Of a stretch of DNA of 64,000 nucleotides, positions 2,518 to 64,000 are shown in pieces. The notes under the pieces are model-generated. The model did no database searches and had not been told where the DNA came from. It was given only the letters and a program-made list of their open reading frames with translations. The stretch comes from an uncultured bacterium (lineage in GTDB: Bacteria; Chlamydiota; Chlamydiia; Chlamydiales; SM23-39), in assembly GCA_963716985.1 (NCBI GenBank), contig OY970323.1:2001280-2065279 (forward strand), given 5' to 3'. The stretch's first letter is position 1. Every line of letters starts with the position of its first letter. Both the position numbers and the translations under genes were made by a program.

Positions 2518-2573
2518 GGAGATTGACGCATCATCGATAGGTCCAGCGGACCCCCTTGCTTTTTTAGGAAATC

Positions 2574-8684: not shown

Positions 8685-8763
8685 AAAAATGAGATCTTTG
8701 AATTCTTAAAATTCACTATACAAAAACAAGGAAAAACAACAAAGAATATCAGAACAAAAAAAG

Positions 8764-8837
8764 CGCACCGGAGAGGATTTGAACCTCTAACCGCCCGGTT
8801 CGTAGCCGGGTACTCTATCCAATTGAGCTACCGGTGC
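8764..8837 (-). tRNA. tRNA-Arg (anticodon ACG), 3' CCA not encoded
   Basis: Reverse complement GCACCGGTAGCTCAATTGGATAGAGTACCCGGCTACGAACCGGGCGGTTAGAGGTTCAAATCCTCTCCGGTGCG folds as a cloverleaf; anticodon stem CCCGG/CCGGG. Confidence 0.95.
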
Positions 8838-8999
8838 CTGTGGAAAGAGTATCATCCATGAGCTAGAGGGTTTAATTCAAGAAATTTTCCTGAAAAAAAT
8901 TCGCTATCTCAAGAAGAGAGCAAAGAAACTTAATTGCTCTCTTCAAAACAAGATTTAAAAAAATTTCTTTGCTCGCCACTCTGAGCCAAGAAAAAACTT

Positions 9000-10550: not shown

Positions 10551-11016
10551 AAAACCTCGTTTTTGAAAAGGAACTTCTCTAGTTAGAATCGTTATCACGA
10601 CTTTTTACGTTTTTTTCTCTAACCGAGAATTCCTTACTGTTAACATAAAAATTGATAGAGAGATCCACCTTGCGCATGCTGTTTTGGTTCTTAACGACGA
10701 ATGGCAGGAATCTAAAAACTCGCTATCGGCAAATATTCTAGCAATACTGCTTCCTTTTTTTCAGAATTTTTTAAATTCCGGATGAAAAAATCTTAACACA
10801 TCAGGTTGACTCCCTCGTTTCCACCTGCGAGAGAACTTCCTGCTTAACATTGGGTGCAAAGAAACTTTGCAATGAATTGGGATTCTCTAAACATCAAAAA
10901 TCCACGCCTCAACTAACGACAACACAGCAAGAAAAAGAACCTGGAAATTCTCGTGGGTGTCGAAACTGATTTTCATCTTCAGCGTATATCTTTCTACTTG
11001 TTAGGTACCATTTCGG

Positions 11017-12030: not shown

Positions 12031-12095
12031 AAAAAATCCATTTGTAAAGGCATTGTAGAGATTTTACACGTTTCGGCAAAAAATAAAAATCTTTT

Positions 12096-13067: not shown

Positions 13068-13225
13068 AGGCGCTCAAATTGTTAAGAATTATTCCCGAAA
13101 AACCAAAAGAAAGCAACGTATAGCTTCTCTTCGTTTTACTCCAGAAATCGGAAGATGCAAAACTACTTGATCCTTCCTTTTAAAAAGAATAGTATGTGAT
13201 AGAAAAAAAAGAGGCAAAAAACTCT

Positions 13226-14584: not shown

Positions 14585-14595
14585 AAAGGAGATAA

Positions 14596-16248: not shown

Positions 16249-16339
16249 GGCCTTTGATCAAAAAAAATAATCTTTCATGCACGATGTCCGGCTATTCTGC
16301 ATTGCGCGAATCGGAGAAACGCCCGCCAGGAATATTTGT

Positions 16340-16571
16340 AGCCCGAATTGGAAAAAGAACAATTTGTAACTTCTTGAACCAATCGAATGGTATCACCGCC
16401 TTTTCCACATCCAAGGCACTTGAAAAGATTTGTTCTGGGATCAAAAGAAAGGCTTGCGGTCGCACTGTCGTGGCCTCCGTAGCACATGGCCTTATTTCAA
16501 TTCCAAGGGATTTCGCAAGCTCCACTATAGGGAAGGGCCTTCGCTCTTGCTATTCGTTCTTTGTCGATCAT
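16340..16571 (-). pseudogene. Frameshifted remnant of CHC2 zinc-finger (DNA primase N-terminal) protein
   Basis: Three frames join to MIDKERIARAKALP/IVELAKSLGIEIR/MCYGGHDSATASLSFDPRTNLFKCLGCGKGGDTIRLVQEVTNCSF; the ATG overlaps the Fic stop (ATGA). Confidence 0.75.
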
Positions 16572-31900: not shown

Positions 31901-34900
31901 CGTAATGTTATTGCCGGCAGGAGAGCTATGGGTCGTGTCCACTTGGACAATTGCGTTCAAAGTAATGGGGCCGGTAAATGAAACGCTTCCCGCAGACGTA
32001 GTGAGATTTCCTCCCAGGTTGATGGCAGTCGGTGCTGTGTAACTAATCGCTCCTGTAGTTGCGACCGTTACCGTTGTGCTCTGGGTAATCGTTGCTGCAG
32101 TTGCAGTTAAGCTAGCTAGAGGCGTCGTCCCTCCAACTGCGCCTCCCAATGTAATCGTCCCCGCCGTTCCTCCCGTCAACCCAAGCGCAAAGGCGCCGTT
32201 GATCGTCGTCGAGCTTCCTGAGAAATTGATATTGGATCCAGCTGCGGTTCCCCCGCCATTTGTCGTATCGATCACCACACCGGCTGCCAATGTGACCGGA
32301 CCCGTCATCGTCACCGTGCCGCTGGTCGCTGTACTCGTAGTGATGTTGCCGCCCAGGCTGATACCAGTGCCTGAATAGCTCACCGCACCCGTCGTTTTAA
32401 CGGTCGAACTCTGGGTCACTGTTGATGCTGCGCTCGTAGCGCTCAAAGAAGTAATAGCAGTCGTTGCACCAACTGCACCGCCAAAGGTGATCGTCGCCGC
32501 ACCCGCCGTCGTAACGGTCAAATTGCGCGTATTGGCCGTTCCATCCGAATCGATCGTTGAATTAAAAGTCGCGCTGAAACCTGATGAGGGGCTAATCGTC
32601 ACGCTGGTTGCAGTCGCAGTCGGAGAATTGTTTAACAAAACAACGCGGCCGGCCGGGAAGGAAATGCTGCTATTCGTCGTCGTAACTGCAATGGTATTTT
32701 GTAGCTGGATCTGCCCGGTGGTCGCTGAAAAGTTCAAAGTCCCAATCGAGATCGTGCCTCTTAATACGGTGATTCCCGTCGTTGTATTGGTCAACGTGGC
32801 AATACTGCTGGTTGCCGCTCCATTGATGGGGCCCACTGTGATCGTGCCTGTTCCGGAGCTGGCTGTGAACGTCGAGGCGGCAGGGACTTGGATTGTGCCC
32901 GTTGTAAAGGTCAAGGCATTGTTATTGGTTGTAAATGTCGTGACTCCCGAGCTCAATTGAAAATTGGTCGCGGCGGTGTATGTTTGGGCATTGGCGTTAT
33001 AAGTTAAGCCATTGAAATTAATGGCGCCTAAACTCGTGAGTGCGGTAGCACCCGAAACGCCAGCAGAAGCTGCGCCGATGCTATTAACATTGATCGTTGC
33101 AGCGTTGGTTACAGTCAGAGTAGAGAGCGCCGACGACCCTCCAACTACGCCTCCCAGAGTCACCGTCCCTCCCGTTCCTCCATTCAACCCAAGCGCAAAG
33201 GCGCCGTTGATCGTCGTCGAACTTCCCGAGAAATTGATATTGGACCCGGCTGCTGTTCCTCCGCCATTTGTCGTATCGATCACCACACCAGCTGCCAATG
33301 TGACCGGGCCCGTCATCGTCACCGTGCCGGTGGCCGCTGTACTCGTGGTGATGTTGCCGCCCAGGCTGATGCCGTTGCCCGTGTAGCTCACTGCGCCCGT
33401 TGTTTTAACGCTCGAACTTTGCGTTAATGTGGTTCCGCTGTTTGCGGTTAGCGAAGCGATCGGCGTGATTCCTCCGACTGCTCCTCCTAGCGTAATCGTC
33501 CCCGCCGTGCCGCTCGTCAATCCAAGCGCAAAGGCACCGTTGATCGTCGTCGAAGATCCTGAGAAATTAATATTGGATCCAGCTGCGGTTCCTCCGCCAT
33601 TCGTCGTATCGATCACCACACCAGCTGCCAATGTGATAGGTCCTGTCATCGTTACCGTGCCGCTGGTCGCTGTACTCGTAGTGATGTTGCCGCCCAGGCT
33701 GATACCAGTGCCTGAATAGCTCACCGCACCCGTTGTTTTAACGGTCGAACTCTGGGTCACTGTTGATGCTGCGCTCGTAGCGCTCAAAGAAGTAATAGCA
33801 GTCGTTGCACCAACTGCACCGCCAAAGGTGATCGTCCCCGCACCCGCCGTCGTAACGGTCAAATTGCGCGTATTGGCCGTTCCATCCGAATCGATCGTTG
33901 AATTAAAAGTCGCGCTGAAACCTGATGAGGGGCTAATCGTCACGCTGGTTGCAGTCGCAGTCGGAGAATTGTTTAACAAAACAACGCGGCCGGCCGGAAA
34001 GGAAATGCTGCTATTCGTCGTCGTAACCGCAATGGTATTTTGTAGCTGGATCTGCCCGGTGGTCGCTGAGAAGTTCAAAGTCCCAATCGAGATCGTGCCT
34101 CTTAATACGGTGATTCCCGTCGTTGTATTGGTCAACGTGGCAATACTGCTGGTTGCCGCTCCATTGATGGGGCCCACTGTGATCGTGCCTGTTCCGGAGC
34201 TGGCTGTGAACGTCGAGGCGGCAGGGACTTGGATTGTGCCGGTTGTAAAAGTCAAGGCATTGTTATTGGTTGTAAATGTCGTGACTCCCGAGCTCAATTG
34301 GAAATTGGTCGCGGCGGTGTATGTTTGGGCATTGGCGTTATAAGTTAAGCCATTGAAATTAATGGCGCCTGAACTCGTGAGTGCGGTAGCACCCGAAACC
34401 CCCGCAGAAGCTGCGCCGATGCTATTAACATTGATCGTGGCGCTCGTAGCGCTCAAAGAAGTAATAGCAGTCGTTGCACCAACTGCACCGCCAAAGGTGA
34501 TCGTCCCCGCACCCGCCGTCGTAACGGTCAAATTGCGCGTATTGGCCGTTCCATCCGAATCGATCGTTGAATTAAAAGTCGCGCTGAAACCTGATGAGGG
34601 GCTAATCGTCACGCTAGTTGCAGTCGCAGCCGGAGAATTGTTTAACAAAACAGCGCGGCCGGCCGGGAAGGAAATACTGCTATTCGTCGTCGTAACTGCA
34701 ATGGTATTTTGTAGCTGGATCTGCCCGGTGGTCGCTGAAAAGTTCAAAGTCCCAATCGAGATCGTGCCTCTTAATACGGTGATTCCCGTCGTTGTATTGG
34801 TCAACGTGGCAATACTGCTGGTTGCCGCTCCATTGATGGGGCCCACTGTGATCGTGCCTGTTCCGGAGCTGGCTGTGAACGTCGAGGCGGCAGGGACTTG

Positions 34901-37900
34901 GATTGTGCCCGTTGTAAAGGTCAAGGCATTGTTATTGGTTGTAAATGTCGTGACTCCCGAGCTCAATTGAAAATTGGTCGCGGCGGTGTATGTTTGGGCA
35001 TTGGCGTTATAAGTTAAGCCATTGAAATTAATGGCGCCTAAACTCGTGAGTGCGGTAGCACCCGAAACGCCAGCAGATGCTGCGCCGATGTTATTCACAT
35101 TGATCGTTGCAGCGTTGGTTACGGTTAGGCTGGCGAGCGCCGACGACCCTCCAACTACGCCGCCCAAAGTCACCGTCCCTCCCGTTCCTCCATTCAACCC
35201 AAGCGCAAAGGCGCCATTGATCGTAGTCGAAGATCCTGAGAAATTAATATTGGATCCAGCTGCGGTTCCCCCGCCATTTGTCGTATCGATCACCACACCA
35301 GCTGCCAATGTGACCGGGCCCGTCATCGTCACTGTGCCGCTGGTCGCTGTGCTCGTGGTGATGTTGCCGCCCAGGCTGATGGCAGTTGGTGCGGTATAAC
35401 TAATCGCCCCTGTAGTTTTGACCGTGCTGCTCTGGGTAATCGTTGCTGCAGTTGCAGTGAGACTGGCCAAAGGAGTCCCTCCGCCAACAGCTCCCGTAAG
35501 TGTTGCTCCTCCGGTTCCGCAGGTGAGGGTAAGTGCATTGGCACCATTGATCGTGCTACTAAAGGAGATAGGGAAACTACTACCCGTTGAGTTGATGAGG
35601 CTTGTCCCGTTTACGCTCACCGCGGCCGGGAAGTTTAAGGAGCTTGCTCCCGTTAGCCTGATGTTGCTTCCAATTTGGATCGTTCCTGTACTGCTACTAA
35701 AACCAAGACCTGCTAATGCCGTAGTTCCTCCAACAGCACCACCCAAAGTAATCGTGTTCGTAGATCCACTATCTAAAAGAAGATTAAATGCACCATTAAC
35801 CGTGCTCGTAGATCCACTGAAAGCAATGCTATTGCCGCTGCCGGCAGGACCTACTCCATTGGTCGTGTCCACCAAGATGTTGTTTCCTAAAACAACGGGA
35901 CCGGTAAATGTAACGGTTCCTGCAGCTGTCGTGAGATTTCCTCCCAGATTGGTGGCAGTCGGTGCTGCGTAACTAATACCGCCTGTAGTTTTGACCGTGC
36001 TGCTCTGGGTAATCGTTGCTGCAGAAACAACAAGGCTACCTAAAGGTGTCGTGGCTCCGACAGCTCCGCCGAATGTCGTGGTAAACGCCCCCGTTCCCCC
36101 TAGCAGGGTAAGAGCAAATGTACCATTAATCGTGCTCGTAGATCCGGTGAAAGTAATGCTGTTGCCGGCAGGAGCGCTATTAGTCGTGTCCACCTGTACG
36201 GCAGTGCTCAGCGTAACAGGCCCGGTAAATGACACGCTTCCACCTGATGTGGTAAGATTTCCTCCCAGGTTGATGGCAGTGCCTGTGTAACTAATCGCTC
36301 CTGTAGTTGCGACCGTGCTATCCTGATTAATCGTTGCAGCAGAGACAACGGCGAAACTGGCCAAAGGTGTTGTGGCTCCGACAGCTCCCGTAAGTGTTGC
36401 CGTTCCGGTTCCGCAGGTGAGGGTAAGTTGATTGGCACCGTTGATCGTACTACTAAAAGTGGTGGTGAGGTTACTCGTTGAGTTGATGACGCTTGTCCCG
36501 ATTACGTTCACTGGAGTCGGGAAATTTAAGGGATTCGCGCCTGTCACCCTGATGTTGCCTCCTATCTGGATGGTTCCCGCGGGGCTAGTAAAGGTAAGAT
36601 TTGTTAACGCGGTTGTTCCTCCAACAGCTCCGCCCAGAGTAATTGTTGAGCTCGAAGCTCCGGTTGCGTCTTGCAGAGTGAGAGCAAATGCGCCATTAAT
36701 CGTGCTTGTAGAACCGCTGAATGTAATGTTATTTCCGGCACCAACGTTTTTGGTCGTGTCCACCATAAGGCTCGTTCCCAAAACAACAGGACCGGTAAAT
36801 GTAACGCTTCCGCCTGATGTAGTGAGATTTTGGTTCAGGTTAATGGCAGTAGGGGCAGTGAAGCTAATAGCTCCGATAGTTTTTACTGTGTTGCTTGGTG
36901 TAATCGTCGATCCGCTCACTGTAAGAGAACTCAAAGCAGCAGACGTGGAGGATCCTCCAACAATAGCGGAAAAAGTAACCACTCCCGCCCCGGCATTAAT
37001 GTTTAAAGAAGAGTTGGTCCCTTGGCTTTGCACCTGTCCGGTAAAACTCACAGCACCGCCGCTCGTATTAATGATCAAGTTTTTTTGCAATTGAACGAAT
37101 ACACTATCGTTAAAATCAACTGCTCCACCTCCGGAAGTAATCGTTACCGGATTGGTGATCACAGAAAGGTTGGCGAAGGTTGAAAAGACAATCGCCGCAT
37201 TATTGGTCTGTATATTGGCTCCAAGAGATACGGATGCAAAGAGGTCATTTCCCTGAAATGTTAGAGTTACTCCACCAGTTGTTATATTAATGGGCGCATT
37301 GGATTCTTGTGTGATGGTTTCCCCACACAATATCACATTCGAAGCTGCACCATTAATTTGCGTCGTTCCAATGGTAGTAGGTGTTGATGTGTCTGCACAG
37401 TAGAGAGGCAAGCTTCCCGAAGAGCCGGATACAATGTCAAGTGTACTTGGGTCTAAAAGCCAATCTCCCGGCTTTCCCGCAGGCGAAAGAGAATTAACCC
37501 ATCCGGTCATACAACCAAGATTTTTCCTGCCGGAGGTTTCGACAAAACCTCCATTTCCTCCTTTCTCTCCGCCGCGCGTGTAGATCTTGCCGTTGAAAAG
37601 CGTATTTCCATCCGACCAGAGAATGACCCGCCCGCCATTTCCTTCGGTTTTCGCATCCGCGAAGATGCACGATTCCGCATCCATGGAAGTGGAAAGGGAG
37701 TTGCGCAAAGGACCTTTTCCCTGATAACTTCCCCCAATAAAGACCTCTCCTCCCCCAAAAAGACCCGACGCATCGATCTTGGATTTTTGAAGAGAGATGT
37801 CCGCTCCCTCTAAAATGACCCGGCCTCCCTTCTCTCCGGAAACGTCTATTTTCCCGGAAATTTGTAGCTCCTCGCCATTGAGATGCACCTCTTTAGAAGT

Positions 37901-40377: not shown

Positions 40378-40470
40378 AACCTGATTCTACAAAGTTCACT
40401 TTTTTTTAAAAGCTAATTTTCAAAATTTTTGAAAAAAGGCGCTTCCTGTGCCATAAGAAAAACTTACGCT

Positions 40471-55400: not shown

Positions 55401-58400
55401 TTCCTATGGCTCCATTCACAGAGACATCGCCGCCGCCGGCTGTCATTGAAATTGTTTGTGTGCCATCCAGAGTGCTGGAAAAAGTGATATTTCCATTATC
55501 TAAAGACGAGTCGAGAACGGTGGCTCCATTTAACGTCGCCGCGGATGCAAATGCAATCGCACCATGAGCCGTAGTAATATTCGCTCCGAGAAAAACAGCT
55601 CCGCTGTTCGTTTGGGAAAAGTTTCCATCGATCGTGAAGGTCACCCCCGGGCCGAATGTCGCCAAGCTGCTATTATTGATATTGAAGGCGCCCGTCCCCG
55701 TCGTTGTCACAGAATGGGGAAATTGAAAACTTGTGCCTGTAAGAGTGATGCCGCCCGCAGTTGTCGTTGAAAGGACTCCATTAAAAATCGAAGTTCCGCT
55801 CCCGGCTGTTTGCGTGATGCTCCCTGCAGAAATGGCCCCTGTAGTGATGTTATGCGCGCTTGTAAACGTAACTCCTGTCAACGGGGCAGCCCCGATGTTA
55901 TTTGTTGTAATATCTCCCGTTCCAGCTGAGAGGGTCAAAGCATAAGCGCCTGTGACGGTGGTTAAAGAAATATCTCCTGCACTGGACCCACTATTTAATA
56001 CCGTGTCGCCGGTTAAAGTGATCGGGCTTGTAAACTGGATCAACTGATTGATTGTCGTGATCGTTCCCAAGAGGTTGACCGAGCCGGCGGCTCCATTTTG
56101 CTCGAAAGCACCCGAGACAGAGGTGGTGATTGGCGAGACCAGAGTAACCGTGCCGCTATTTAATACGGTAAAACCTCCGCCGCTTGTCGTAATGATCGAT
56201 CCATTGATAGAAAGGTTTGTCAATGCAAGATTGATACCCGACGCGCCATTTGTATTCAGCGCTCCCAAAGTGGTGGTTCCGGTGCCTGCCACTTGCTGAA
56301 TGCGGGCAGCCGTGATCGCTTGTGTGGAGATGTTGAGGGCGCTACTGAAGATTAAATTGCCAAGGCGCGCCACACTGCCGGCAATGTCTCCGATCGTAAT
56401 ATTACCGCCACCCGCCGCGAGAGTAAGATTATTCGCTCCATCCAACGTACTGGAAAGCACGATAGAGTGCGAAGCGGCTGCGGTACTCAATGTTGCGGTT
56501 CCTCCTAATGTAATAGCTCCCGCGATCGAAATTCCCGTGCCTGCAATCGCTCCGCTAGCTGTAATCTGTCCGGCAAGAGAAACAGCTCCTCCGGTCTGGG
56601 AAACTGCCCCTCCGATGTTATAAGTCTTTGAAGGAGCAAACGATAGAGCACCTGAAACAGCCAGAGGGCCGCTGCCTGTCGTCGTTGTCGCATTGCCGCT
56701 AAAGGCAAACGCCGTACCCGTAAGACTAATTCCTCCCACTGTATGGGTGGTAATATCTCCGCTAAATGTGGTTGTTGCGCCGCCAACAAGCTGTGTAATC
56801 GAAGACGCAGTAATGGCTTGTGTAGATACGGTACCAGCTTGATTGATCGATAGATCCGAAAGAGGCGTTGTGTCACCGATATCCCCGACTAAATTGATAT
56901 TGCCGGTGCTGCCAGTGGATAATATGAGCGTTTGGGTATATGGAGCTGTTCCATCGATGGTACTGTGAAAAGTGATCGCACCGGTTCCGGTACCTGCATT
57001 AAACGTCGCTGCGCCAGCTAACGTGATCGGATTAGTAAAATAGATGGCCGCATTCGCAGTTAGAATCGTCCCTGAAAAGCTGACGGCGCCGCCGCCCGAT
57101 TGAGTGAATGCTCCGGCAAGAGAGGTCGAGCTGCCTGCGACGAGCGTCAATAGTGCGGAATTGGTGATGGTAAATGGACCGCCTGTTGTCGTAATTAAAT
57201 TTCCATTGATCGAAAAACTAGTCCCCCAGAGGTTCACTCCACCGGCTGCATTAGTATTGATATCGCCGGAATAAGTAGATGCTCCTGTCGCTGCCACTGT
57301 CTGATTGATCGATGCCGCCCTGACTCCTAAAGCATTCACAGCTGCCACACTATTGATCGTCAGAGCGCCGAGGCGCGTGAGGCTGCCCACTGCCATGTCG
57401 AACGAGATACTTCCCGTGCCCGCAGTCAAAGAAAGATCGCCGGGTCCATCGAGCGTATTCACGAAAATAATGTTGGCTCCTGTTCCTGTGCTTAAAGCCG
57501 TAGCGCCTGTCAGCGCCACCGCGCTTCCAAATTGAATCGACTGGCCGGTCGTGGTAATCGATCCGGCCGATTGCACAGCTCCCGCTCCACTTTCGGTAAA
57601 AGCGCCCGTCAACGTGAATGCCGCGGAAGAAGTAAGAATGAGGGTGCCGCCGACAGAAACGCTGACTATGCCCCCGCTTGTCGTATTGACCGTACTATTA
57701 AAAGTGGTGTTTGTATTGGTAATTGAAAGTCCGGCAGCCGTATTAATATCCACGGCGCCATTAAAGCTTGTGATACCCGTTCCGGCTAACTGGCTAAATG
57801 CCCCAAGCGTGAGAGCATTCGCTGTGAAATTATTTGCCGTGTTAACGGTCATCGTCCCAAGCCGCTTTGTGCCTCCGACAGCGCCCGAAAAACTGATATT
57901 TCCAAGATCAGCGCTCAAGGAAAGGTTTTGCCCGCCGGCGCCGGTTCCATTGACAGTACTCGAGAAAGTAATATTTCCCGTATCAGGTCCTGAGCTGAGA
58001 GCGATCGACGCGCTTAAAGCAACTGGTCCAAACATCTGAATGTTACCACCGCCCGTGGTGATATTGCCGTCGAGGTCAATCAGCGTCGAGCCCGAATAGA
58101 TCACTGCGCCGAATGTTGCAACAGACGAACTCTGCGAAATGTTTGCTCCCGTTGCACTGAGAGACGCCAAGGATTCGTTCGAACCAACGGCTCCCGTGAA
58201 TGTAATGGTTCCAGTTCCTGCCGTTAGAATCAGCGAGCGGGTATTCGCTATATCGCCGTCGAGCGTACTTAAAAAAGAAATGCTTGCGCCCGGAGATCCG
58301 GTTGAAATTGTGACGTTATTCGTTAGGATGACCGGCAAAGAAAATGTGATCGCCGTATTATTCGTTGTAATGTTTCCATTGATATAGATCGTAGTGGAAC

Positions 58401-61400
58401 CGTTGATAATAATGGTATTCGCGACAATCGTGCCGAGGTGCAAAATCCCACCCGTAATCTCGACTAAGTTAAACTCCCCTGCTGTTGCGGTGCCGATATT
58501 GCCAGTCTGCACTGTGCCCGTGCCGGCATTCAGAATCAGCGTGCTCAAAGCGTTTGTCGTGGCATCGACACTAGGAACGGTAATATTGCCATTGGAGGAA
58601 TTCATCGTCAGGGCGGTTCCGGAAGAGAGGTCAATCGTTCCTGATGGAACGTTCAGCGCCTGGCCGTTAGAAGTAAAAGTTGTCAATGCTCCTGAGTTCA
58701 TATTGAACGTTGTGCCCGCAGTATACGTTTGAGCATTGGCATTATAGGTCTGGCCATTGAAATTAATGGCGCCTGTAGAATTGAGGGAAGTTGAGCCACT
58801 GACACCCGCGGTGGAAACGATGCCAATATTGGAAAGCGTGATTGCGCTTCCTGACAGAGAAAGAGCGCTTAATGGCGTCGCCGCGCCAATGGCGCCGGAG
58901 ATTGTCACTGATCCTGACCCAGCCGTCAGAGTGAGCGTTTCAGCTCCATTGACCGTACTGGAAAAGCTGATCGTCGCCCCGCCGTAACCTCCGCCATGTG
59001 TGCTGTCCATCAATACGGAAGAGCTCAGGACAACCGGTCCGGTCATCGTGATGGTACTGCCGTTCGTGATTATATTGCCTTCGATATCAATCGGCGAACC
59101 TGTGTAGCTCACTGCTCCAGTCGTAGCTGCTGTTGAATTCTGGGTAACCGTTGATCCGCCGTTAGCGCTTAGAGAAGCAAGAGGAGTGCTTGCTCCGACT
59201 GCACCTCCCAGCATAATCGTACCCGCCGTACCGCTCGTCAACCCAAGCGCAAAGGCACCGTTGATTGTCGTCGAACTTCCTGAGAAATTGATATTGGATC
59301 CAGCTGCCGTTCCTCCGCTATTCGTTGTATCGATCGCCACTCCGGCTGCCAATGTGACCGGGCCCGTCATCGTCACCGTGCCGCTTGTAGCCGTGCTCGT
59401 AGTGATGTTGCCGCCCAGGCTGATGCCAGTGCCTGAATAACTCACCGCGCCCGTTGTTTTAACGGTCGAACTTTGCGTTAATGTGGTTCCACTGTTTGCG
59501 GAGAGAGAAGCAAGAGGCGTACTGGCCCCGACTGCGCCTCCTAGCGTAATCGTTCCGCTCGTTCCGCCCGTCAACCCAAGCGCAAAGGCACCGTTGATTG
59601 TCGTCGAGCTTCCTGAGAAATTGATATTGGATCCAGCTGTTGTTCCTCCGCCATTCGTCGTATCGATTACCACACCGGCTGCCAATGTGATAGGTCCTGT
59701 CATCGTCACCGTGCCGCTTGTAGCCGTGCTCGTAGTGATGTTGCCGCCCAGGCTGATGCCGTTACCTGTGTAGCTAATAGCGCCCGTCGTTTTAACGGTC
59801 GAGCTTTGCGTTAATGTGGTTCCACTGTTTGCGGTTAGCGAAGCTATAGACGTACTTCCCCCAACTGCGCCTCCCAATGTAATCGTCCCCGCCGTGCCGC
59901 CCGTCAACCCAAGCGCAAAGGCGCCGTTGATTGTCGTCGAACTTCCTGAGAAATTGATATTGGACCCTGCTGCGGTTCCTCCGCCATTCGTCGTGTCGAT
60001 GGCGACTCCGGCTGCCAATGTGACCGGGCCCGTCATCGTCACCGTGCCGCTTGTAGCCGTGCTCGTAGTGATGTTGCCGCCCAGGCTGATGCCGTTACCT
60101 GTGTAGCTAATAGCGCCCGTCGTTTTAACGGTCGAGCTTTGCGTTAATGTGGTTCCACTGTTTGCGGTTAGCGAAGCTATAGACGTACTTCCCCCAACTG
60201 CGCCTCCCAATGTAATCGTCCCCGCCGTGCCGCCCGTCAACCCAAGCGCAAAGGCGCCGTTGATTGTCGTCGAACTTCCTGAGAAATTGATATTGGACCC
60301 TGCTGCGGTTCCTCCGCCATTCGTCGTGTCGATGGCGACTCCGGCTGCCAATGTGACCGGGCCCGTCATCGTCACCGTGCCGCTTGTAGCCGTGCTCGTA
60401 GTGATGTTGCCGCCCAGGCTGATGCCGTTACCTGTGTAGCTAATAGCGCCCGTCGTTTTAACGGTCGAGCTTTGCGTTAATGTGGTTCCACTGTTTGCGG
60501 TTAGCGAAGCTATAGACGTACTTCCCCCAACTGCGCCTCCCAATGTAATCGTCCCCGCCGTTCCGCCCGTCAACCCAAGCGCAAAGGCGCCGTTGATCGT
60601 CGTCGAGCTTCCTGAGAAATTGATATTGGATCCAGCTGCCGTTCCCCCGCCATTCGTCGTGTCGATGGCGACTCCGGCTGCCAATGTGACCGGGCCCGTC
60701 ATCGTCACCGTGCCGGTGGCTGCTGTACTCGTAGTGATGTTGCCGCCCAGGCTGATACCAGTGCCTGTGTAACTAATAGCGCCCGTCGTTTTAACGGTCG
60801 AACTCTGGGTCACTGTGGTTCCACTGTTAGCGGTTAGCGAAGCGATCGGCGTGATTCCTCCGACTGCGCCTCCCAATGTAATCGTCCCCGCCGTGCCGCC
60901 CGTCAACCCAAGCGCAAAGGCGCCGTTGATCGTAGTCGAACTTCCTGAGAAATTAATATTGGATCCGGCTGCCGTTCCTCCGCCATTCGTTGTGTCGATG
61001 GCAACTCCGGCTGCCAATGTGACTGGGCCCGTCATCGTCACCGTGCCGCTTGTAGCCGTGCTCGTGGTGATGTTGCCGCCCAGGCTGATGCCGTTGCCCG
61101 TGTAGCTAATAGCGCCCGTCGTTTTAACGGTCGAACTCTGGGTCACTGTGGTTCCACTGTTTGCGGTTAGCGAAGCGATCGGTATGATTCCTCCGACTGC
61201 GCCTCCCAATGTAATCGTCCCCGCCGTGCCGCCCGTCAACCCAAGCGCAAAGGCGCCGTTGATTGTCGTCGAACTTCCTGAGAAATTGATATTGGATCCA
61301 GCTGCGGTTCCCCCGCCATTTGTCGTATCGATGGCGACTCCCGCTGCCAATGTGACCGGACCCGTCATCGTCACCGTGCCGCTGGTCGCTGTACTCGTAG

Positions 61401-63999
61401 TGATGTTGCCGCCCAGGCTGATACCAGTGCCTGAATAGCTCACCGCACCCGTCGTTTTAACGGTCGAACTCTGGGTCACTGTTGATGCTGCGCTCGTAGC
61501 GCTCAAAGAAGTAATAGCAGTCGTTGCACCAACTGCACCGCCAAAGGTGATCGTCCCCGCACCCGCCGTCGTAACGGTCAAATTGCGCGTATTGGCCGTT
61601 CCATCCGAATCGATCGTTGCATTAAAGGCCGCGCTGAAACCTGATGAGGGGCTAATCGTCACGCTGGTTGCAGTCGCAGTCGGAGAATTGTTTAACAAAA
61701 CAGCGCGGCCGGCCGGAAAGGAAATGCTGCTATTCGTCGTCGTAACCGCAATGGTATTTTGTAGCTGGATCTGCCCGGTGGTCGCTGAGAAGTTCAAAGT
61801 CCCAATCGAGATCGTGCCTCTTAATACGGTGATTCCCGTCGTTGTATTGGTCAACGTGGCAATACTGCTGGTTGCCGCTCCATTGATGGGGCCCACTGTG
61901 ATCGTGCCTGTTCCGGAGCTGGCTGTGAACGTCGAGGCGGCAGGGACTTGGATTGTGCCGGTTGTAAAAGTCAAGGCATTGTTATTGGTTGTAAATGTCG
62001 TGACTCCCGAGCTCAATTGGAAATTGGTCGCAGCGGTGTATGTTTGGGCATTGGCGTTATAAGTTAAGCCATTGAAATTAATGGCGCCTAAACTCGTGAG
62101 TGCGGTAGCACCCGAAACACCCGCAGATGCACCGCCAATACTATTGATATTGATCGTGGCGCTCGTGGCGCTCAAAGAAGTAATAGCAGTCGTTGCACCA
62201 ACTGCACCGCCAAAGGTGATCGTCCCCGCACCCGCCGTCGTAACGGTCAAATTGCGCGTATTGGCCGTTCCATCCGAATCGATCGTTGAATTAAAAGTCG
62301 CGCTGAAACCTGATGAGGGGCTAATCGTCACGCTAGTTGCAGTCGCAGCCGGAGAATTGTTTAACAAAACAGCGCGGCCGGCCGGGAAGGAAATACTGCT
62401 ATTCGTCGTCGTAACTGAAATGGTATTTTGTAGCTGGATCTGCCCGGTGGTCGCTGAAAAGTTCAAAGTCCCAATCGAGATCGTGCCTCTTAATACGGTG
62501 ATTCCCGTCGTTGTATTGGTCAACGTGGCAATACTGCTGGTTGCCGCTCCATTGATGGGGCCCACTGTGATCGTGCCTGTTCCGGAGCTGGCTGTGAACG
62601 TCGAGGCGGCAGGGACTTGGATTGTGCCGGTTGTAAAAGTCAAGGCATTGTTATTGGTTGTAAATGTCGTGACTCCCGAGCTCAATTGAAAATTGGTCGC
62701 GGCGGTGTATGTTTGGGCATTGGCGTTATAAGTTAAGCCATTGAAATTAATGGCGCCTAAACTCGTGAGTGCGGTAGCACCCGAAACACCCGCAGATGCA
62801 CCGCCAATACTATTGATATTGATTGTTGCAGCGTTGGTTACAGTCAGGGTGGAGAGCGGCGTCGTGCCTCCAGCTACGCCTCCCAGAGTCACCGTCCCTC
62901 CCGTTCCTCCATTCAACCCAAGCGCAAAGGCGCCGTTGATTGTCGTCGTACCTCCCGAGAAATTGATATTGGACCCGGCTGCTGTTCCTCCGCCATTTGT
63001 CGTATCGATCACCACACCAGCTGCCAATGTGACCGGGCCCGTCATCGTCACCGTGCCGGTGGCCGCTGTACTCGTGGTGATGTTGCCGCCCAGGCTGATG
63101 CCGTTGCCCGTGTAGCTCACTGCGCCCGTTGTTTTAACGCTCGAACTTTGCGTTAATGTGGTTCCGCTGTTTGCGGTTAGCGAAGCGATCGGCGTGATTC
63201 CTCCGACTGCTCCTCCTAGCGTAATCGTCCCCGCCGTGCCGCTCGTCAATCCAAGCGCAAAGGCGCCGTTGATCGTCGTCGAAGATCCTGAGAAATTGAT
63301 ATTGGACCCTGCTGCCGTTCCTCCGCCATTCGTCGTATCGATCGCCACACCGGCTGCCAATGTGACCGGGCCGGTCATCGTCACCGTACCGCTTGTAGCC
63401 GTGCTCGTAGTGATGTTGCCGCCCAGGCTGATGCCGTTGCCCGTGTAGCTCACTGCACCCGTTGTTTTAACGCTCGAACTTTGCGTTAATGTGGTTCCAC
63501 TGTTTGCGGTGAGAGAAGCGATCGGTATGATTCCTCCGACTGCGCCTCCCAATGTAATCGTCCCCGCCGTGCCGCCCGTCAACCCAAGCGCAAAGGCGCC
63601 GTTGATCGTAGTCGAAGATCCCGAGAAATTGATATTGGATCCGGCTGCCGTTCCTCCGCCATTTGTCGTGTCGATGGCGACTCCCGCTGCCAATGTGATA
63701 GGTCCTGTCATCGTTACCGTGCCGCTGGTCGCTGTACTCGTAGTGATGTTGCCGCCCAGGCTGATACCAGTGCCTGAATAGCTCACCGCACCCGTCGTTT
63801 TAACGGTCGAACTCTGGGTCACTGTTGATGCTGCGCTCGTAGCGCTCAAAGAAGTAATAGCAGTCGTTGCACCAACTGCACCGCCAAAGGTGATCGTCGC
63901 CGCACCCGCCGTCGTAACGGTCAAATTGCGCGTATTGGCCGTTCCATCCGAATCGATCGTTGAATTAAAAGTCGCGCTGAAACCTGATGAGGGGCTAAT
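40471..63999 (-). CDS. Giant TpsA-like passenger, >7,840 aa, 5' end outside window
   Basis: Open frame continues to the window edge (the 63924 'start' is a mid-repeat TTG); same repeat modules and same C-terminal cassette as tpsA2; the TPS domain itself is not visible. Confidence 0.85.
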   Translation of the reverse strand: MSPSSGFSATFNSTIDSDGTANTRNLTVTTAGAATITFGGAVGATTAITSLSATSAASTVTQSSTVKTTGAVSYSGTGISLGGNITTSTATSGTVTMTGPITLAAGVAIDTTNGGGTAAGSNINFSGSSTTINGAFALGLTGGTAGTITLGGAVGGIIPIASLTANSGTTLTQSSSVKTTGAVSYTGNGISLGGNITTSTATSGTVTMTGPVTLAAGVAIDTTNGGGTAAGSNINFSGSSTTINGAFALGLTSGTAGTITLGGAVGGITPIASLTANSGTTLTQSSSVKTTGAVSYTGNGISLGGNITTSTAATGTVTMTGPVTLAAGVVIDTTNGGGTAAGSNINFSGGTTTINGAFALGLNGGTGGTVTLGGVAGGTTPLSTLTVTNAATININSIGGASAGVSGATALTSLGAINFNGLTYNANAQTYTAATNFQLSSGVTTFTTNNNALTFTTGTIQVPAASTFTASSGTGTITVGPINGAATSSIATLTNTTTGITVLRGTISIGTLNFSATTGQIQLQNTISVTTTNSSISFPAGRAVLLNNSPAATATSVTISPSSGFSATFNSTIDSDGTANTRNLTVTTAGAGTITFGGAVGATTAITSLSATSATININSIGGASAGVSGATALTSLGAINFNGLTYNANAQTYTAATNFQLSSGVTTFTTNNNALTFTTGTIQVPAASTFTASSGTGTITVGPINGAATSSIATLTNTTTGITVLRGTISIGTLNFSATTGQIQLQNTIAVTTTNSSISFPAGRAVLLNNSPTATATSVTISPSSGFSAAFNATIDSDGTANTRNLTVTTAGAGTITFGGAVGATTAITSLSATSAASTVTQSSTVKTTGAVSYSGTGISLGGNITTSTATSGTVTMTGPVTLAAGVAIDTTNGGGTAAGSNINFSGSSTTINGAFALGLTGGTAGTITLGGAVGGIIPIASLTANSGTTVTQSSTVKTTGAISYTGNGISLGGNITTSTATSGTVTMTGPVTLAAGVAIDTTNGGGTAAGSNINFSGSSTTINGAFALGLTGGTAGTITLGGAVGGITPIASLTANSGTTVTQSSTVKTTGAISYTGTGISLGGNITTSTAATGTVTMTGPVTLAAGVAIDTTNGGGTAAGSNINFSGSSTTINGAFALGLTGGTAGTITLGGAVGGSTSIASLTANSGTTLTQSSTVKTTGAISYTGNGISLGGNITTSTATSGTVTMTGPVTLAAGVAIDTTNGGGTAAGSNINFSGSSTTINGAFALGLTGGTAGTITLGGAVGGSTSIASLTANSGTTLTQSSTVKTTGAISYTGNGISLGGNITTSTATSGTVTMTGPVTLAAGVAIDTTNGGGTAAGSNINFSGSSTTINGAFALGLTGGTAGTITLGGAVGGSTSIASLTANSGTTLTQSSTVKTTGAISYTGNGISLGGNITTSTATSGTVTMTGPITLAAGVVIDTTNGGGTTAGSNINFSGSSTTINGAFALGLTGGTSGTITLGGAVGASTPLASLSANSGTTLTQSSTVKTTGAVSYSGTGISLGGNITTSTATSGTVTMTGPVTLAAGVAIDTTNSGGTAAGSNINFSGSSTTINGAFALGLTSGTAGTIMLGGAVGASTPLASLSANGGSTVTQNSTAATTGAVSYTGSPIDIEGNIITNGSTITMTGPVVLSSSVLMDSTHGGGYGGATISFSSTVNGAETLTLTAGSGSVTISGAIGAATPLSALSLSGSAITLSNIGIVSTAGVSGSTSLNSTGAINFNGQTYNANAQTYTAGTTFNMNSGALTTFTSNGQALNVPSGTIDLSSGTALTMNSSNGNITVPSVDATTNALSTLILNAGTGTVQTGNIGTATAGEFNLVEITGGILHLGTIVANTIIINGSTTIYINGNITTNNTAITFSLPVILTNNVTISTGSPGASISFLSTLDGDIANTRSLILTAGTGTITFTGAVGSNESLASLSATGANISQSSSVATFGAVIYSGSTLIDLDGNITTGGGNIQMFGPVALSASIALSSGPDTGNITFSSTVNGTGAGGQNLSLSADLGNISFSGAVGGTKRLGTMTVNTANNFTANALTLGAFSQLAGTGITSFNGAVDINTAAGLSITNTNTTFNSTVNTTSGGIVSVSVGGTLILTSSAAFTLTGAFTESGAGAVQSAGSITTTGQSIQFGSAVALTGATALSTGTGANIIFVNTLDGPGDLSLTAGTGSISFDMAVGSLTRLGALTINSVAAVNALGVRAASINQTVAATGASTYSGDINTNAAGGVNLWGTSFSINGNLITTTGGPFTITNSALLTLVAGSSTSLAGAFTQSGGGAVSFSGTILTANAAIYFTNPITLAGAATFNAGTGTGAITFHSTIDGTAPYTQTLILSTGSTGNINLVGDIGDTTPLSDLSINQAGTVSTQAITASSITQLVGGATTTFSGDITTHTVGGISLTGTAFAFSGNATTTTGSGPLAVSGALSFAPSKTYNIGGAVSQTGGAVSLAGQITASGAIAGTGISIAGAITLGGTATLSTAAASHSIVLSSTLDGANNLTLAAGGGNITIGDIAGSVARLGNLIFSSALNISTQAITAARIQQVAGTGTTTLGALNTNGASGINLALTNLSINGSIITTSGGGFTVLNSGTVTLVSPITTSVSGAFEQNGAAGSVNLLGTITTINQLIQFTSPITLTGDTVLNSGSSAGDISLTTVTGAYALTLSAGTGDITTNNIGAAPLTGVTFTSAHNITTGAISAGSITQTAGSGTSIFNGVLSTTTAGGITLTGTSFQFPHSVTTTGTGAFNINNSSLATFGPGVTFTIDGNFSQTNSGAVFLGANITTAHGAIAFASAATLNGATVLDSSLDNGNITFSSTLDGTQTISMTAGGGDVSVNGAIGTIAPLSSLTVTSANNISLGNVGTGGSAGVTGAASLPATTNLNFNGTNYNFNSTTISGATANFKAGALTTVITNGNPITFAVSPTTIELSSSTNLTINSAGGAITLGAVHAVANNLRTLTLNAVAGPIQVGQIGSSNNGEFSSVSFTCGTLTITGNLYSNAFTLSPSVQIFLGGSMTTVNTSLTFPVPVVVNNIPTATISTGATGANIIFSSTIDGDASLTRNLILAAGSGSITLTGAIGGTNPLASLAISSANIVTAHAITVGALSQNSGTGTTTFNGAINTSNVSGITLTGSAFTFNNTVTTTTGGGVQVANSGNLTMPAGSTFTLSGPFSQTGSGSVLMGNTITSGDEVLFTSAVTLTHAISISTAAASKQIHFIGTIDSGVGGPFDMTLNAGTGGNIYVDKDIGSISALGNVLIVFAQNITVQAITAYSATLTGGTGTLILNGNALVGAGGINITGNNFISNGNVTTTNGGNITYNNSGTSTAMVGGIVVTCSGNLSQIGTGPLFLSNLITVGGNVLITGPVSIASPTTIDVSAGTGSITMLNTVDGAYSLTLKSGGGAVTFDQPVGSGIPIGALSISGANGLTTQSIQAASITQTTSTGKTWFKGAIATSGAIAITTTGDIERDAAITTTAGSLTITNGGTFISTSAGNISLGGALLQNGAGSVSLAGSVATTNANITFNRPITLYGSTQINSGTGTGNIDLKQTVQGAFALTLSSGAGNITLENQVGTVGTPLAGLTFASANLVSTQVIYSTFITQSTATAVTGATTFNGALYATGGSGISLTGTAFTFDNPIASAGPLTIMNSGLVTYISAATGNISGALTEMGTGSTLLSSSITAGGAVQFEEPVVVSGIGSIDTSAANRNITFANTIDGPGNLSGSLTLSSGTNDITIAGAVGSIHSLGSLTISTVGNLTTQAVTASSLTQSASSLTGTSLFNGSISTSGSGGIHLTGSAFTFLQNVTTTGSGPISINNSGTLTTTAGKTISSGDIFTQNGSGSVQLGCSIVTTNATAGHGDIHFTGTSSITLIAPISIDSSIGGGTIQFSAASTVDGYEPITLNAGSTGNIVVLGDFGGTTPLGAFTITNANDVTVQAITADSITQSASSLTGTSYVLGSLATSAPAGLTLIGNNFTVGPLATSITTTNGGSFTVTNQGLISGSGPTLTTVSGAFIQNGPGPVVLGGPLTANEGISCTGPVIFGLDSTLDSSGGNGDIVFSNTVDGYAGTENVTLTAGGGNITFSQAVGGSTPLNVLTFQSAHNITASSSITVGSIAAGTPFTGTAAFSGAVATSASSGIALTGNAITFNNNVATTGGGAVSLTNTGLLTIANGSVFSINGAITQSGAGSVSLGGSITTTNAQLLTDAMTFASAITLTAAVSLDSHAGVGDNNIVLNGAVDGSMTLDVTAGLGNVTLNSTMGHTAPLTSLTIHSAATILVGANASISGPFTITSATGPSTFNGTLSASAISINGAAINFNHAVSATSGAIGITNSGTLTIASSAPITSSTTFSQTGAGSVSLGSNITASGTIGIPSLEIASPITLTNGVILNSGGGDLTLSSAVGGAYALTLTVGAGDLTLSGNLGTLLAPLGICTITNVHDASIQAIYASSITQQNGSGTSTLYGNLYTNTIGGITLIGHNFVSSGTVTTESGSNGSLTITNSGLLTGTGASTVTLDGAFIQNGTGPVNVGGTIETNHANISHASAISVLLPSTFTSHGGNVIFSSTVNGPASLTIAASTGNVTFNGIVGGSSPLGFLTISSAGTIFQNYSLSATGAVADTATTIHLNGNITTNASDITLTGNVIVGAALALSTSGGSGNISITGSTDGDVAGRDFTIQTATGNITLQGVGASTSFHNLTFSANNISTGNLGLGATGTASLTATTDINFTGTSYNNGTQNYSAGGNFNFNNGSATTVSSNIRNITFTTGTIHLSNDLTIDSNGGTIRMTNLLGTGKNFTVDADVGDYYFTQLGSNSSFLNNVSLTAGSNAQFHPYPVNFPNPGTNVYASGSFTVQTTASVTLSGNYSISGQTYTTPVAISGAVTFTCGAGGTVTFNRTVDANTAGVDTLSFDFDPCNGSVVFNAPVGSIAPLASLSINAPTDVTVASTMDVGSFAVTNGVGTTAFASGLTSTALGGVSITTPTINLSGAFSTGNNGPFVLDNSGVLTIAAGSGFNISGAFQQTGAGSVQIGGTVITNNAAIEFTGPVTLDGDISFDSAVSTGGDVSFASTIQGAHNLSITAGSSNISFGGAVGTVGTPLTGIQIVSGDVTASAPIYAQTITQLAGAASFNALTVNGGSGINLTGSAFTFNNAVTTSGSLLVHNSGLLTFHNAAYSIGGSLTQTGAGSTQIAGTFSPVGAISFAQGVELIGTTSFDTHTTNQNILFSADLTNDNAGAHDLSLNPGTGNITFSGAVGTISFPIGALAITQAGNVTAGVIVASSITQSAGSGTTTISGNMTTNQAGGISLAGTNFTINSTVITTGLGPFSITNSGPLSLTLGGLTSISDAFTQSGGGAVSLSGALAAAQGISFANAITLAGNTALSTSNLDITLSSTVNGHYSFGLGGARDVIFGANLGGTTPLGALTITTVRNITYPLVNADSIAQSASTGTTTITGPMTTTGALGISISGGAINQNGAITTSAGSAGPVTFINTGLLTIGIGVATNAAGAYTQSGVGGTVHLGGSINATENQIHFTGATTLTADVSLNAGPASSTSAVITFDSTIQGAHALTLSAPGGTITLSGDVGTLGTLLTGFTITNAQTVSTQGIYSAFINQNSGIGTTTFNGALRTNGSGISLLGTSFTFNNTFTTTGVGSVTINNSGPTIFAVGATGSIAGSFTQTGTGGTTQLSSSITAGGAIQLHGALCVPTSATGSLSTSAANQPITLFSTVDGPGNLTLSSGTNDITIAGAAGSIHSLGSLTISTVGNLTTQAVTASSLTQSASSLTGTSLFNGSISTSGSGGIHLTGSAFTFLQNVTTTGSGPISINNSGTLTTTADKTISSGDIFTQNGSGSVQLGCAIVTTNATAGHGDIHFTGTSSITLIAPISIDSSIGGGTIQFSAASTVDGYEPITLNAGSTGNIVVLGDFGGTTPLGAFTITNANDVTVQAITADSITQSASSLTGTSYVLGSLATSAPAGLTLIGNNFTVGSLATSITTTNGGSFTVTNQGLISGSGPTLTTVSGAFIQNGPGPVVLGGPLTANEGISCTGPVIFGLDGTLDSSGGNGDIVFSNTVDGNAGTENVTLTAGVGDITFSQAVGAGSFPGTTWVGSLTASGSTISIADVGTALAVGVSGATTLTASGGINFTGTIYNANTQTYTITSANTFDMNAGALTTFSSHVHAIAFVGVNGLLLGTGTDLTMNTSGANISLGPINAHTGDHRHLVLDAGVGSIQIGDLGTSGAGKFASASFTGTNLTLGNAFADAFTFTYTGTLYAAGNIVSTDTALSFPSIGVGAVVLSANSTISTYGVVGADITFSGTVDGVVDDAFGLTLNSGSGSIDFKQNVGVGHRLASLVIDAALNMTLEPAATMIVDSLYQFSGFGTTAFEGALVVPTDFGISLTGNNFAFYNFVETLNNGPLSVINSGTLTFAGSGSISGGFTQTGSGPSPSVALSGSITAGQPILISSSTILSGTTTLDTSAANQPITFQSAVNGSGNITFLAGGGDINLEADAGLSSRLGTITIRSSHNVTGQSVSASAVNMSTTLGGSASSGTATVNGVLNTNGAAGITLVGTNFVLNGSITTTNGGNFVLTNSGLVTDYAINSVSVNGSYTQNGTGPVNFAGSLTTTATSVGAGTISFTSPITLLAGGSFDSSSSHSDITFSSTIQGPGSLSVSSGSGVSGGDILFNQNIGATTAIGAITIPTAHNVTMQTVNAASLTQSAGSGTTMINGNVTTHTSTGINLTGTNIIRGANWTTSSAGPISVNNSGTFTSTASGTIVSSGPFNQSGSGSVQISGSVTTSNASIDFHGAMTIDGNMVLNSGSGTGAITVHNTVDGDIAGRTLTLTSGNGDISFLAGVGSSTRLGIVTVTNANNVTFNGLKTTSFVQQSGAVTGTTTLNGTTNTSAGGGIQINANAITLNNTVQTTANGPIILTNGGLLTINAACTLSDGSLARFTQNGLGSSVLTGSVTSDGPIFFSKGVAVSSSPFLTASSQAITLSSTLNGPGNLTLNSGAADIVITGAAGSSSRLGDLIFTNANNITASSIRAASIIQSAGAGTTTMAGDLNTTGNINLSGAAFVLNGSDITTLGSFTIAHTAPSTLIFGASTSISGSFTESGSGAISLEGTLITNNENITFNNALSLTHATTINSNGGTILIVSTITGNQALVLASGSGNTTVSAGITGVHSLTIQSANNASLQAVLAGCFVQSQGGGLTTFNGALTTTLNNGINLTGSQFTFNAPVATLNGGPVQITNSGLLTIATGAPFNITGNFTQLNSGNVSLADNFTTAGNSILFTGAVVLGHNVSLDTGATVGNITFIRAVSGSHNLTLNTGFGAIALDQNAGTLGVLQVNSAGTFNALAITAGSISLSGISTSATISGDLNTSLAAGITMSGVAFNVLGNVTTLTSGPFTITNSGPLVLGTNFNFSIDGAFLQNGSGHVSGGGTLATNNHPVEFQSLLTLTGDLSITSGSANAAVAEVDGPYNLAVAAGSGDAIFNGFIGNHVALQNVTVSSAHDINLMGVGSVATGVTGTFNLTASHNIIFGNTVYNANTQIYSAANEFTFNTGSQTNLTSFGGPIAFTNGTIHLGAFNDLQVITNNGSFSFVSLLGTTFENIIISTGTGTAALNTIASGGTINNLMVTAGNITISGSIDPINTHLVSLKDILNTAGSELIICNNTPIFDAQGGNVGSLSSPLLVHSANQIIVGGGPGLSLADLDGFSIDHTVQWLLADPPCKIIFNGVVIKNCTIPPTPPPVVVTVSFPFAVPGFDSSSFNLASDFFFLPFFLEDIYIKKRVPIYYRQPLPSITVKEVPEKI
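45632..46713. repeat. Internal duplication in tpsA1, copy 1 (copy 2 at about 51665-52746)
   Basis: Offset 6,033 bp; near-identical ~1.08 kb. Confidence 0.85.
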
Positions 64000-64000
64000 C
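59150..64000. repeat. Tandem module array in tpsA1: 7x333 bp, 2x669 bp, 3x333 bp, partial 669 bp
   Basis: Antisense ORF starts at 59483, 59816, 60149, 60482, 60815 and 61148 (step 333), 62072/62741 (step 669) and 63158/63491. Confidence 0.9.

Follow-up and report, generated by a model that had tools for sequence, protein, structure and literature searches.

How do two giant paralogous genes, strongly diverged over most of their length, come to carry an array of modules that is nearly identical at the DNA level? The question is raised by a 64,000-nt stretch (hereafter the window) from an uncultured bacterium (GTDB lineage Bacteria; Chlamydiota; Chlamydiia; Chlamydiales; SM23-39), which comprises bases 2,001,280-2,065,279 of the single 2,067,739-bp contig (OY970323.1, 44.4% G+C) of assembly GCA_963716985.1. 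It holds the genes tpsA2 and tpsB and the C-terminal part of tpsA1, and the two tpsA genes are predicted to encode paralogous giant exoproteins of type Vb, or two-partner, secretion (TPS) that use one common TpsB for export. A previous reading, made from the sequence alone, had recognised modules of 111 amino acids (aa), called A, and of 223 aa, called B, in different orders in the two genes, and proposed that ongoing recombination shuffles them into a combinatorial stalk. The analysis presented here finds instead that both arrays share one order, and the likely explanation is concerted evolution, through tandem gain and loss of A units and gene conversion between the paralogues, within a predicted beta-helical stalk.

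Parsing with the two junction motifs delimited A units of 109-111 aa and B units of 223 or 227 aa (Table 1), an A unit that precedes a B being written A'. Within the window the parsing yields exactly the strings of the sequence-only reading, A-B-B-A-A-B-A in tpsA2 and ...B-A-A-A-B-B-A7 in tpsA1, and on the window alone the two do look different, as would be expected if modules were freely shuffled. The tpsA1 array, however, extends past the window with the units A4', A3, A2, A1 and b0, the last of which reaches the contig end. When the contig beyond the window is taken together with a bridging metagenome protein, P0028 (described below), the complete strings are A'-B-B-A-A-A-A'-B-A-A-A'-B-B-A7 for tpsA1 and A'-B-B-A-A'-B-A for tpsA2. 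Both follow the order A'-BB-A(n)-A'-B-A(n), and the reported difference was an effect of the window edge. The arrays differ in the length of their A runs, which is 1 and 1 in tpsA2 vs 3 and 2 in tpsA1, and in one additional A'-BB-A7 block of tpsA1. Tandem Repeats Finder recovers the A runs of tpsA1 with a period of 333 (6.9 copies at 59161-61470 and 2.8 copies at 62877-63813). The first unit of each array is a hybrid A', and its 5' part passes gradually into older upstream repeats. The older A-like units that follow the tpsA2 array (period 327, 2.9 copies) are 82% identical in DNA between themselves and 57-66% identical to the A units of the arrays, and the diverged B-like module that follows the tpsA1 array aligns with B-like modules from other genera.

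Table 1. Genes, arrays and units of the locus (positions in the window)
Feature	Position	Strand	Description	Basis
tpsA2	19997..38695	(-)	6,232 aa, 610 kDa two-partner-secretion exoprotein	ORF (open reading frame) list, translation
tpsB	38692..40377	(-)	561-aa Omp85-type transporter, sole one at this locus	Pfam
tpsA1	40471..64000 and beyond	(-)	C-terminal 7,842 aa within window	ORF list, translation
Older A-like units	31100..32083	(-)	diverged, following tpsA2 array	identity matrix, Tandem Repeats Finder
tpsA2 array	32084..35437	(-)		motif parsing, identity matrix
tpsA2 A2'	35108-35437
tpsA2 B3	34439-35107
tpsA2 B4	33758-34438
tpsA2 A5	33425-33757
tpsA2 A6'	33098-33424
tpsA2 B7	32417-33097
tpsA2 A8	32084-32416
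B-like module	58144..58839	(-)	diverged, directly after tpsA1 array	49% aa identity to B
tpsA1 array, in-window part	59146..64000	(-)		motif parsing, identity matrix, Tandem Repeats Finder
tpsA1 B5	63820 onward		cut by window end
tpsA1 A6	63487-63819
tpsA1 A7	63154-63486
tpsA1 A8'	62827-63153
tpsA1 B9	62158-62826
tpsA1 B10	61477-62157
tpsA1 A11-A17	59146-61476		seven A units

Similarity between the two genes at the DNA level is collinear with this order. Whichever gene they belong to, the 7 B units show 96.6-100% identity in each of their 21 pairings, and the A units of the arrays (n=18) are 75-100% identical, with top cross-gene pairs at 99.4%, 96.9% and 94.0%. The near-identity of units across genes that had been read from the sequence holds for B and for the A units before a B, whereas the other A units fit it less well. 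Reciprocal best cross-gene pairs occur in collinear order (tpsA2/tpsA1: B4/b0 100%, A5/A1 94.0%, A6'/A4' 99.4%, B7/B5 98.8%), and the high-identity tract detected by blastn in tpsA2 spans about 32114 to 35388. The longest tracts shared exactly by the genes measure 870, 755 and 413 nt and fall without exception on the collinear offsets 32,069 and 31,403, two A units apart. The offsets noticed previously, 27,719 (2,251 nt, 94.4%) and 29,729 (1,322 nt, 95.9%), were recovered by blastn as well and are secondary diagonals of the same pattern; only these showed in the window because the primary diagonal lies mostly past position 64000. Each of the three exact tracts spans a unit border, which argues that the module is not the unit of exchange. 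Outside the array, no inter-gene DNA match of at least 400 nt was found by blastn at E<1e-30, and the C-terminal 1,600 aa of the two proteins are 38% identical. The description of the rest of the genes as strongly diverged is correct for these parts, but not for the first ~1 kb, where DNA identity is 92.6% (the tpsA1 part lies at the contig start), nor for the last ~190 nt (91%).

The proposal that DNA is exchanged between the genes gains support from the mosaic structure of the B units and from the phylogeny of the A units, in addition to the exact tracts. Six complete B units contain 20 informative sites, and 101 of the 190 site pairs are incompatible in the four-gamete test; the incompatibility is clustered along the sequence to a degree reached in 0 of 10,000 permutations of the sites. 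Over their first ~30 nt the B units sort by gene, with 5 informative sites separating the tpsA1 from the tpsA2 copies, and from nt 138 most sites pair by position across the genes (B3 with B9, B4 with B10 and b0, B7 with B5). Among the 25 variable codons of B, 15 differ synonymously only, so that the identity is not maintained by selection at the protein level. On the A-unit tree the gene label needs 3 changes, and one origin for it appears in 0% of 200 bootstrap trees; as had been anticipated, the A units do not cluster by gene.

The exchanged tracts are young in comparison with the genes that carry them. A same-genus genome, G001 (99% complete), has the arrangement groEL-tpsB-tpsA, with nothing between groEL and tpsB and no tpsA1 there; the tpsA2 orthologue alone was found in it, its C-terminal 1,000 aa being 82% identical, vs 42% for the tpsA1 query. 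The paralogues must therefore be much older than the tracts that they share. Directly upstream of the tpsA1 start codon, outside the window (contig bases ~2341-2594, minus strand), lies a 251-nt remnant of the tpsB 3' end, 92% identical and with one 1-nt indel and a sharp left boundary, which indicates that copying from a tpsB-tpsA junction gave tpsA1 its 5' end, long after the gene bodies had diverged. Old paralogues thus contain three islands of recent identity, one at the 5' end, one in the array and one at the 3' end. Among 41 genomes (40 others), high-identity B units were found in this genome only, all 7 matches of at least 97% lying inside tpsA1 and tpsA2; the next-best match, at 49%, again lies in this genome, and four other genomes have matches of 31-45%. 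Since diverged B-like modules (31-49%) are spread over both proteins and occur in three other genera as well, B is an old type of module that was expanded recently here. On the same-genus metagenome-assembled genome (MAG) contig L001, where the groEL-tpsB-tpsA arrangement lies at 7860-16383, the tpsA is cut by the contig end in older A-like repeats, and its C-terminal part is found on G001:C51; the split probably falls at an array of its own.

In the explanation by concerted evolution the two arrays are positionally homologous, and the array in each stalk is young and composed of A and B, both of them predicted beta-helix modules. Slipped or unequal exchange would gain or lose whole A units in the tandem runs and would once have duplicated a multi-unit block. 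RecA-type gene conversion, both inside each gene and from one gene to the other, would transfer tracts from a few hundred up to ~900 nt in length, regardless of module borders. The outcome would be an array that evolves in concert, while the remaining parts of the genes drifted to ~38% protein identity.

Part of this evidence involves the ends of the assembly, as the single contig starts and stops inside tpsA1. The tpsA1 frame stays open as far as the contig's final base (8,662 aa), and on the same strand another open frame, 796 aa long and including a TPS domain, runs off the contig's first base; the assembled parts sum to 9,434 aa and 914 kDa. P0028, a metagenome protein of 1,841 aa from one 6,810-nt contig in ENA, connects both ends. 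Its N-terminal 772/772 aa are identical to the contig-start frame, the unit string A'-B-B-A-A-A-A'-B follows, and from the second B onward it aligns collinearly with the contig-end frame, differing at 10 of 700 aa. Judged by P0028, ~325 aa (~975 nt of array), made up of the remainder of A', a 223-aa B and 16 aa of the B after it, would be absent from the assembly, and the full tpsA1 would encode ~9,770 aa, or 0.95 MDa. At the 5' end of one B unit P0028 carries the signature TINV, which is of the tpsA2 type, where tpsA1 of this genome has TINI; if P0028 comes from another strain, the difference would be a conversion polymorphism. In the protein databases, P0028 alone was close among proteins of 614-1,957 aa (10 matches), and among proteins of 1,958-5,000 aa the best match was 44-50% identical (24 matches); a scan of metagenome contigs with P0028 gave 13 loci at 33-53% identity, none of them close. 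By the naming of their sources, the close homologues belong to Parachlamydiales, Rhabdochlamydia-like and Verrucomicrobia MAGs.

The contig breaks within the tpsA1 array, and the partial B at its end matches B4 of tpsA2 at 100%. Mis-joined or collapsed repeats in a metagenome-derived assembly might thus account for some of the array order, or for tpsA2-like units being present in tpsA1. The metagenomes leave room for such an artefact, as no run holds more than 0.34 of the sampled words and none has long reads. We nevertheless consider it unlikely. The tpsA2 array is contiguous and has unique flanks on both sides, the B units of each gene bear their own 5' signature, and the divergence among the A units, 0-25%, is patterned as in genuine tandem arrays. 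Moreover, P0028 reproduces both the junction of N-terminus and array and the order of units, and contigs of three metagenome runs span the A6'-to-B7 junction by ~110 nt. Part of the stretch is contained in 11 of the 12 listed metagenome runs (best word share 0.34), in contigs from soil, peat and sediment. Four runs were mapped on positions 31000-42500 of the window, where their longest array pieces measure 697-812 nt, too short for unit order, and those bins of B3 and B4 that lack depth do not imply that the sequence is absent. The 'joints' listed from the metagenomes were set aside as cross-mapping of similar units (e.g. 15 mismatches on one side) or as having short sides, and a loose end at 40443 as the tpsA2 3' end mapped onto the homologous end of tpsA1.

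Free recombination of single A and B modules, giving a combinatorial stalk whose order varies by cell or strain, would also leave units that are not clustered by gene and B units that are mosaic, and all four junction types (A-A, A-B, B-B and B-A) do occur. It is nonetheless quite improbable in view of the order itself, which is the same in both strings once tpsA1 is complete and is kept over 8 units in P0028, the sole second instance, and in view of the exact tracts that cross unit borders. A further argument comes from the unit ends, in which the sequence-only reading had seen a junction grammar. The motifs are present as it stated, but TIN(V/I)N and TQSS.VKTTG are merely the first residues of the next B and the next A unit, respectively, so that by themselves they are uninformative on any grammar. 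Context is recorded elsewhere in the units: a 31-aa tail, ...LNGGTGGTV...TVTNAA, together with a length of 109-110 aa, is found in 4/4 A units before B and in 0/12 before A. Likewise, B measures 223 aa in 2/2 units before B and 227 aa in 4/4 complete units before A, and the truncated b0 at the contig end also terminates in the ASTV tail of the 227-aa form. The A' units before B are 96.9-99.4% identical across the genes and form a cross-gene group on the tree. The apparent grammar is explained by joint inheritance of a unit's last coil and the adjacent unit, a link that free shuffling would break. The context subtypes fit block inheritance and do not require co-adaptation of adjoining coils, although this may be additive. 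On these grounds the combinatorial stalk is not supported, even though the exchange of DNA between the genes is upheld.

A dedicated variation system, in which conversion between the paralogues would change stalk length or epitopes in the manner of cassette-style antigenic variation, could draw on the very long identical tracts in otherwise old paralogues, and on the TINV of P0028 if that protein is from a different strain, but it is very unlikely, given that both genes are complete and there are no silent truncated donor cassettes (each of the two is a full-length gene that has its TPS domain and start codon), that the ORF list, which was not searched in depth, holds no recombinase, invertase or special site beside the array, and that the unit differences are mostly synonymous, with no sign of diversifying selection.

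Several points weigh against concerted evolution as the explanation. The units number only 7 and 20, and the comparison of their order with a random shuffle is descriptive, not statistical. A8 of tpsA2 is nearest to A11 of tpsA1 (89.5%) and not to A6 (85.6%), B3 of tpsA2 is nearest to B7 of its own gene (98.7%), and the complete match of b0, at the contig end, with B4 could be assembly cross-talk rather than conversion. The two contig ends fail to join in frame and the tpsA1 array is incompletely assembled; the bridge between them depends on P0028, a single metagenome protein, which may not be an independent sample and whose last 43 aa have no match in this genome (best tblastn E 0.65). Nor was exchange seen in progress in a population, the metagenome contigs reaching at most ~800 nt in the array. 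As to the 43-aa tail, two origins were tried and rejected, a frame-shifted B unit (best agreement 9/43 residues) and, on the tblastn result, a segment encoded elsewhere in the genome.

The nature of the stalk was approached by structure prediction. The B module, extended by 31 residues at either end and modelled by AlphaFold2 from a 12-row alignment, gave an all-beta chain with a mean predicted local distance difference test (pLDDT) score of 86.1, and models as a continuous right-handed beta-helix. Over residues 1-288 of the model, VIA-align found Vag8 (Z 17.9), EtpA (Z 17.0) and pertactin (Z 16.8), and against the HMW1 secretion domain it gave Z 17.6, with a root-mean-square deviation of 3.9 over 248 aligned residues; Foldseek returned no match in the PDB at E<=0.001. 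A single-sequence AlphaFold2 model of A'-B-A was poor (pLDDT 50.7) and was set aside. As the model is that of a beta-helical passenger, B appears to be more stalk and not a globular insert, and each A or B unit would extend the fibre by a few nanometres. Pfam matches on the array to DUF4320 (E 3e-7) and, below threshold, to an Ig-like family were taken as low-complexity beta-strand noise.

The assignment to type Vb secretion draws on a TPS domain and an adjacent Omp85-type TpsB with POTRA, which are present, and on a beta-helical passenger, which is by prediction only. The TPS domain (PF05860) of tpsA2 lies at aa 46-245 (E 7.7e-30, 105 bits, cut-off 33.5), and in a search of the genome the TPS domains of the two tpsA genes scored 111.1 and 110.6 bits; tpsB matches ShlB (E 4.2e-16, 59.8 bits) and POTRA_2 (E 5.9e-16, 58.5 bits). 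The start codon of tpsA2 is TTG and overlaps the tpsB stop. With four TPS-domain matches and three ShlB-type transporters in the whole genome, there are two TpsA genes for one TpsB at this locus. The tpsA1 and tpsA2 products probably serve this environmental chlamydia as surface fibres or adhesins of beta-helical structure. Neither giant protein contains VENN, [EQ]LYN, VDNN or VSNN in a regular-expression search, and no Pfam toxin family was found in the C-terminal 667, 3,067 or 2,999 aa scanned; lacking VENN and a Pfam toxin domain, they are not classed as CdiA, although a toxin of unknown fold may be present. No Pmp or autotransporter family matched at E<=0.01 in the Pfam segments scanned, which exclude the middle of tpsA1 (49471-64000).

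The arrays are direct repeats on one strand, 28-32 kb apart and with identical tracts up to 870 nt, and recA was found in this genome. The geometry that had been suggested for a deletion-fusion is therefore correct: a crossover would fuse the head of tpsA1 with the tail of tpsA2, with loss of tpsB. No such product was observed, in data that could not have revealed one. Two TpsB genes are present elsewhere in the genome, at 247759-248742 and 438507-439472, in two smaller two-partner secretion loci (G000:C1:253041-253697 and 442480-443157; open frames of 1,526 and 1,087 aa). Upstream of tpsA1 the locus is adjoined by a GroEL-type chaperonin gene (G000:C1:3286-4977, minus strand), as it also is in the related MAG. 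Each giant gene has, in addition, an internal duplication outside the A/B array: in tpsA2, 21251-23422 vs 27290-29464 (2.18 kb, 93.0%), and in tpsA1, 45626-46713 vs 51659-52746 (1.09 kb, 98.3%). The spacing of the duplicate pairs, ~6,035 nt, is equal in the two diverged genes. The C-termini of both giants (19997-20200 and 40471-40660) have a common motif, proline-rich and then hydrophobic (PVVVTVSFPFAVPGFDSSSFNLASDFFFLPFFL...), which matches no Pfam family and may be an anchoring or retention element.

The process proposed here, in which repeat arrays of paralogous surface proteins evolve in concert, is of a kind already known, and this instance is distinctive by protein size and phylum. In the streptococcal Alp/Rib and the staphylococcal Sdr/Clf proteins, near-identical DNA repeats are homogenised by unequal crossing-over and gene conversion, and their copy number is variable. 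The likeness lies in long near-identical repeats in paralogous surface proteins; those proteins, however, are Gram-positive, wall-anchored and built of one repeat type, while here two interleaved types form a type Vb beta-helix in a chlamydia. Bordetella FhaB/FHA, Haemophilus HMW1/HMW2 and E. coli EtpA are similar in having an N-terminal TPS domain followed by a beta-helix, and the B model matches HMW1 and EtpA. Their repeats are short, about 19-20 aa, and old, in contrast to the super-modules of 111 and 223 aa described here, which are 94-100% identical in DNA and common to two genes. Within the same phylum, the Pmp proteins of Chlamydiaceae (type Va) are likewise a paralogous, repeat-rich, beta-helical surface family, and the present proteins contain GGA[ILV] motifs (17 and 28 copies), but they have no Pmp or autotransporter Pfam match in the segments scanned and a separate TpsB for their predicted export. 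The cassette systems pilE/pilS, vlsE and msp2 differ as well, there being no silent truncated donors here and high-identity B units only in tpsA1 and tpsA2.

Related architectures appear in a 2017 review (PMC5422565), the statements that follow being limited to the excerpts of it considered here. TpsA adhesins consist of a TPS domain and then a long beta-helix of imperfect tandem repeats, and the size range given for TpsA proteins is 100-650 kDa (PMC5422565), which tpsA1, at about 9,770 aa and 0.95 MDa on the evidence of P0028, would exceed. LspA1 and LspA2 of Haemophilus ducreyi are TpsA proteins, with an 'lspB-lspA2' operon (PMC5422565), and in the same manner two very large TpsA paralogues are accompanied here by one TpsB directly upstream of the second gene; a shared modular array converted tract by tract is not described for Lsp in those excerpts. 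The genes of CdiA vary by homologous recombination with nearby partial copies, the orphan cdiA-CT/cdiI cassettes (PMC5422565). The present case is comparable as variation of a TpsA through homologous recombination, with the difference that in CdiA the C-terminal toxin and its immunity gene are swapped, whereas here it would be the stalk, the C-termini of tpsA1 and tpsA2 being homologous. Full-text literature searches found no paper on two-partner secretion arrays in chlamydiae.

To our knowledge, the biology of environmental chlamydiae is known almost solely from genomes, and their attachment to hosts is poorly understood. In this organism ~2.3% of the DNA of a 2.07-Mb genome is devoted to two predicted secreted fibres, and the locus offers a clean natural example of concerted evolution within otherwise old paralogues. 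It also carries a warning for annotation, as the array breaks the assembly, divides tpsA1 over both contig ends and misleads a reading of order that is limited to a window. There is a slim chance that the array is a working device of an intracellular bacterium for the variation of length and surface, in which frequent conversion and unequal exchange between two co-expressed giant fibres served by a single transporter would give a population stalks of many lengths and mosaic surfaces. If so, occasional deletions of 28-32 kb would fuse the two genes, remove tpsB and switch the system off, and this would amount to a recombination-driven on/off and length switch of a kind undescribed for type Vb secretion or for chlamydiae.

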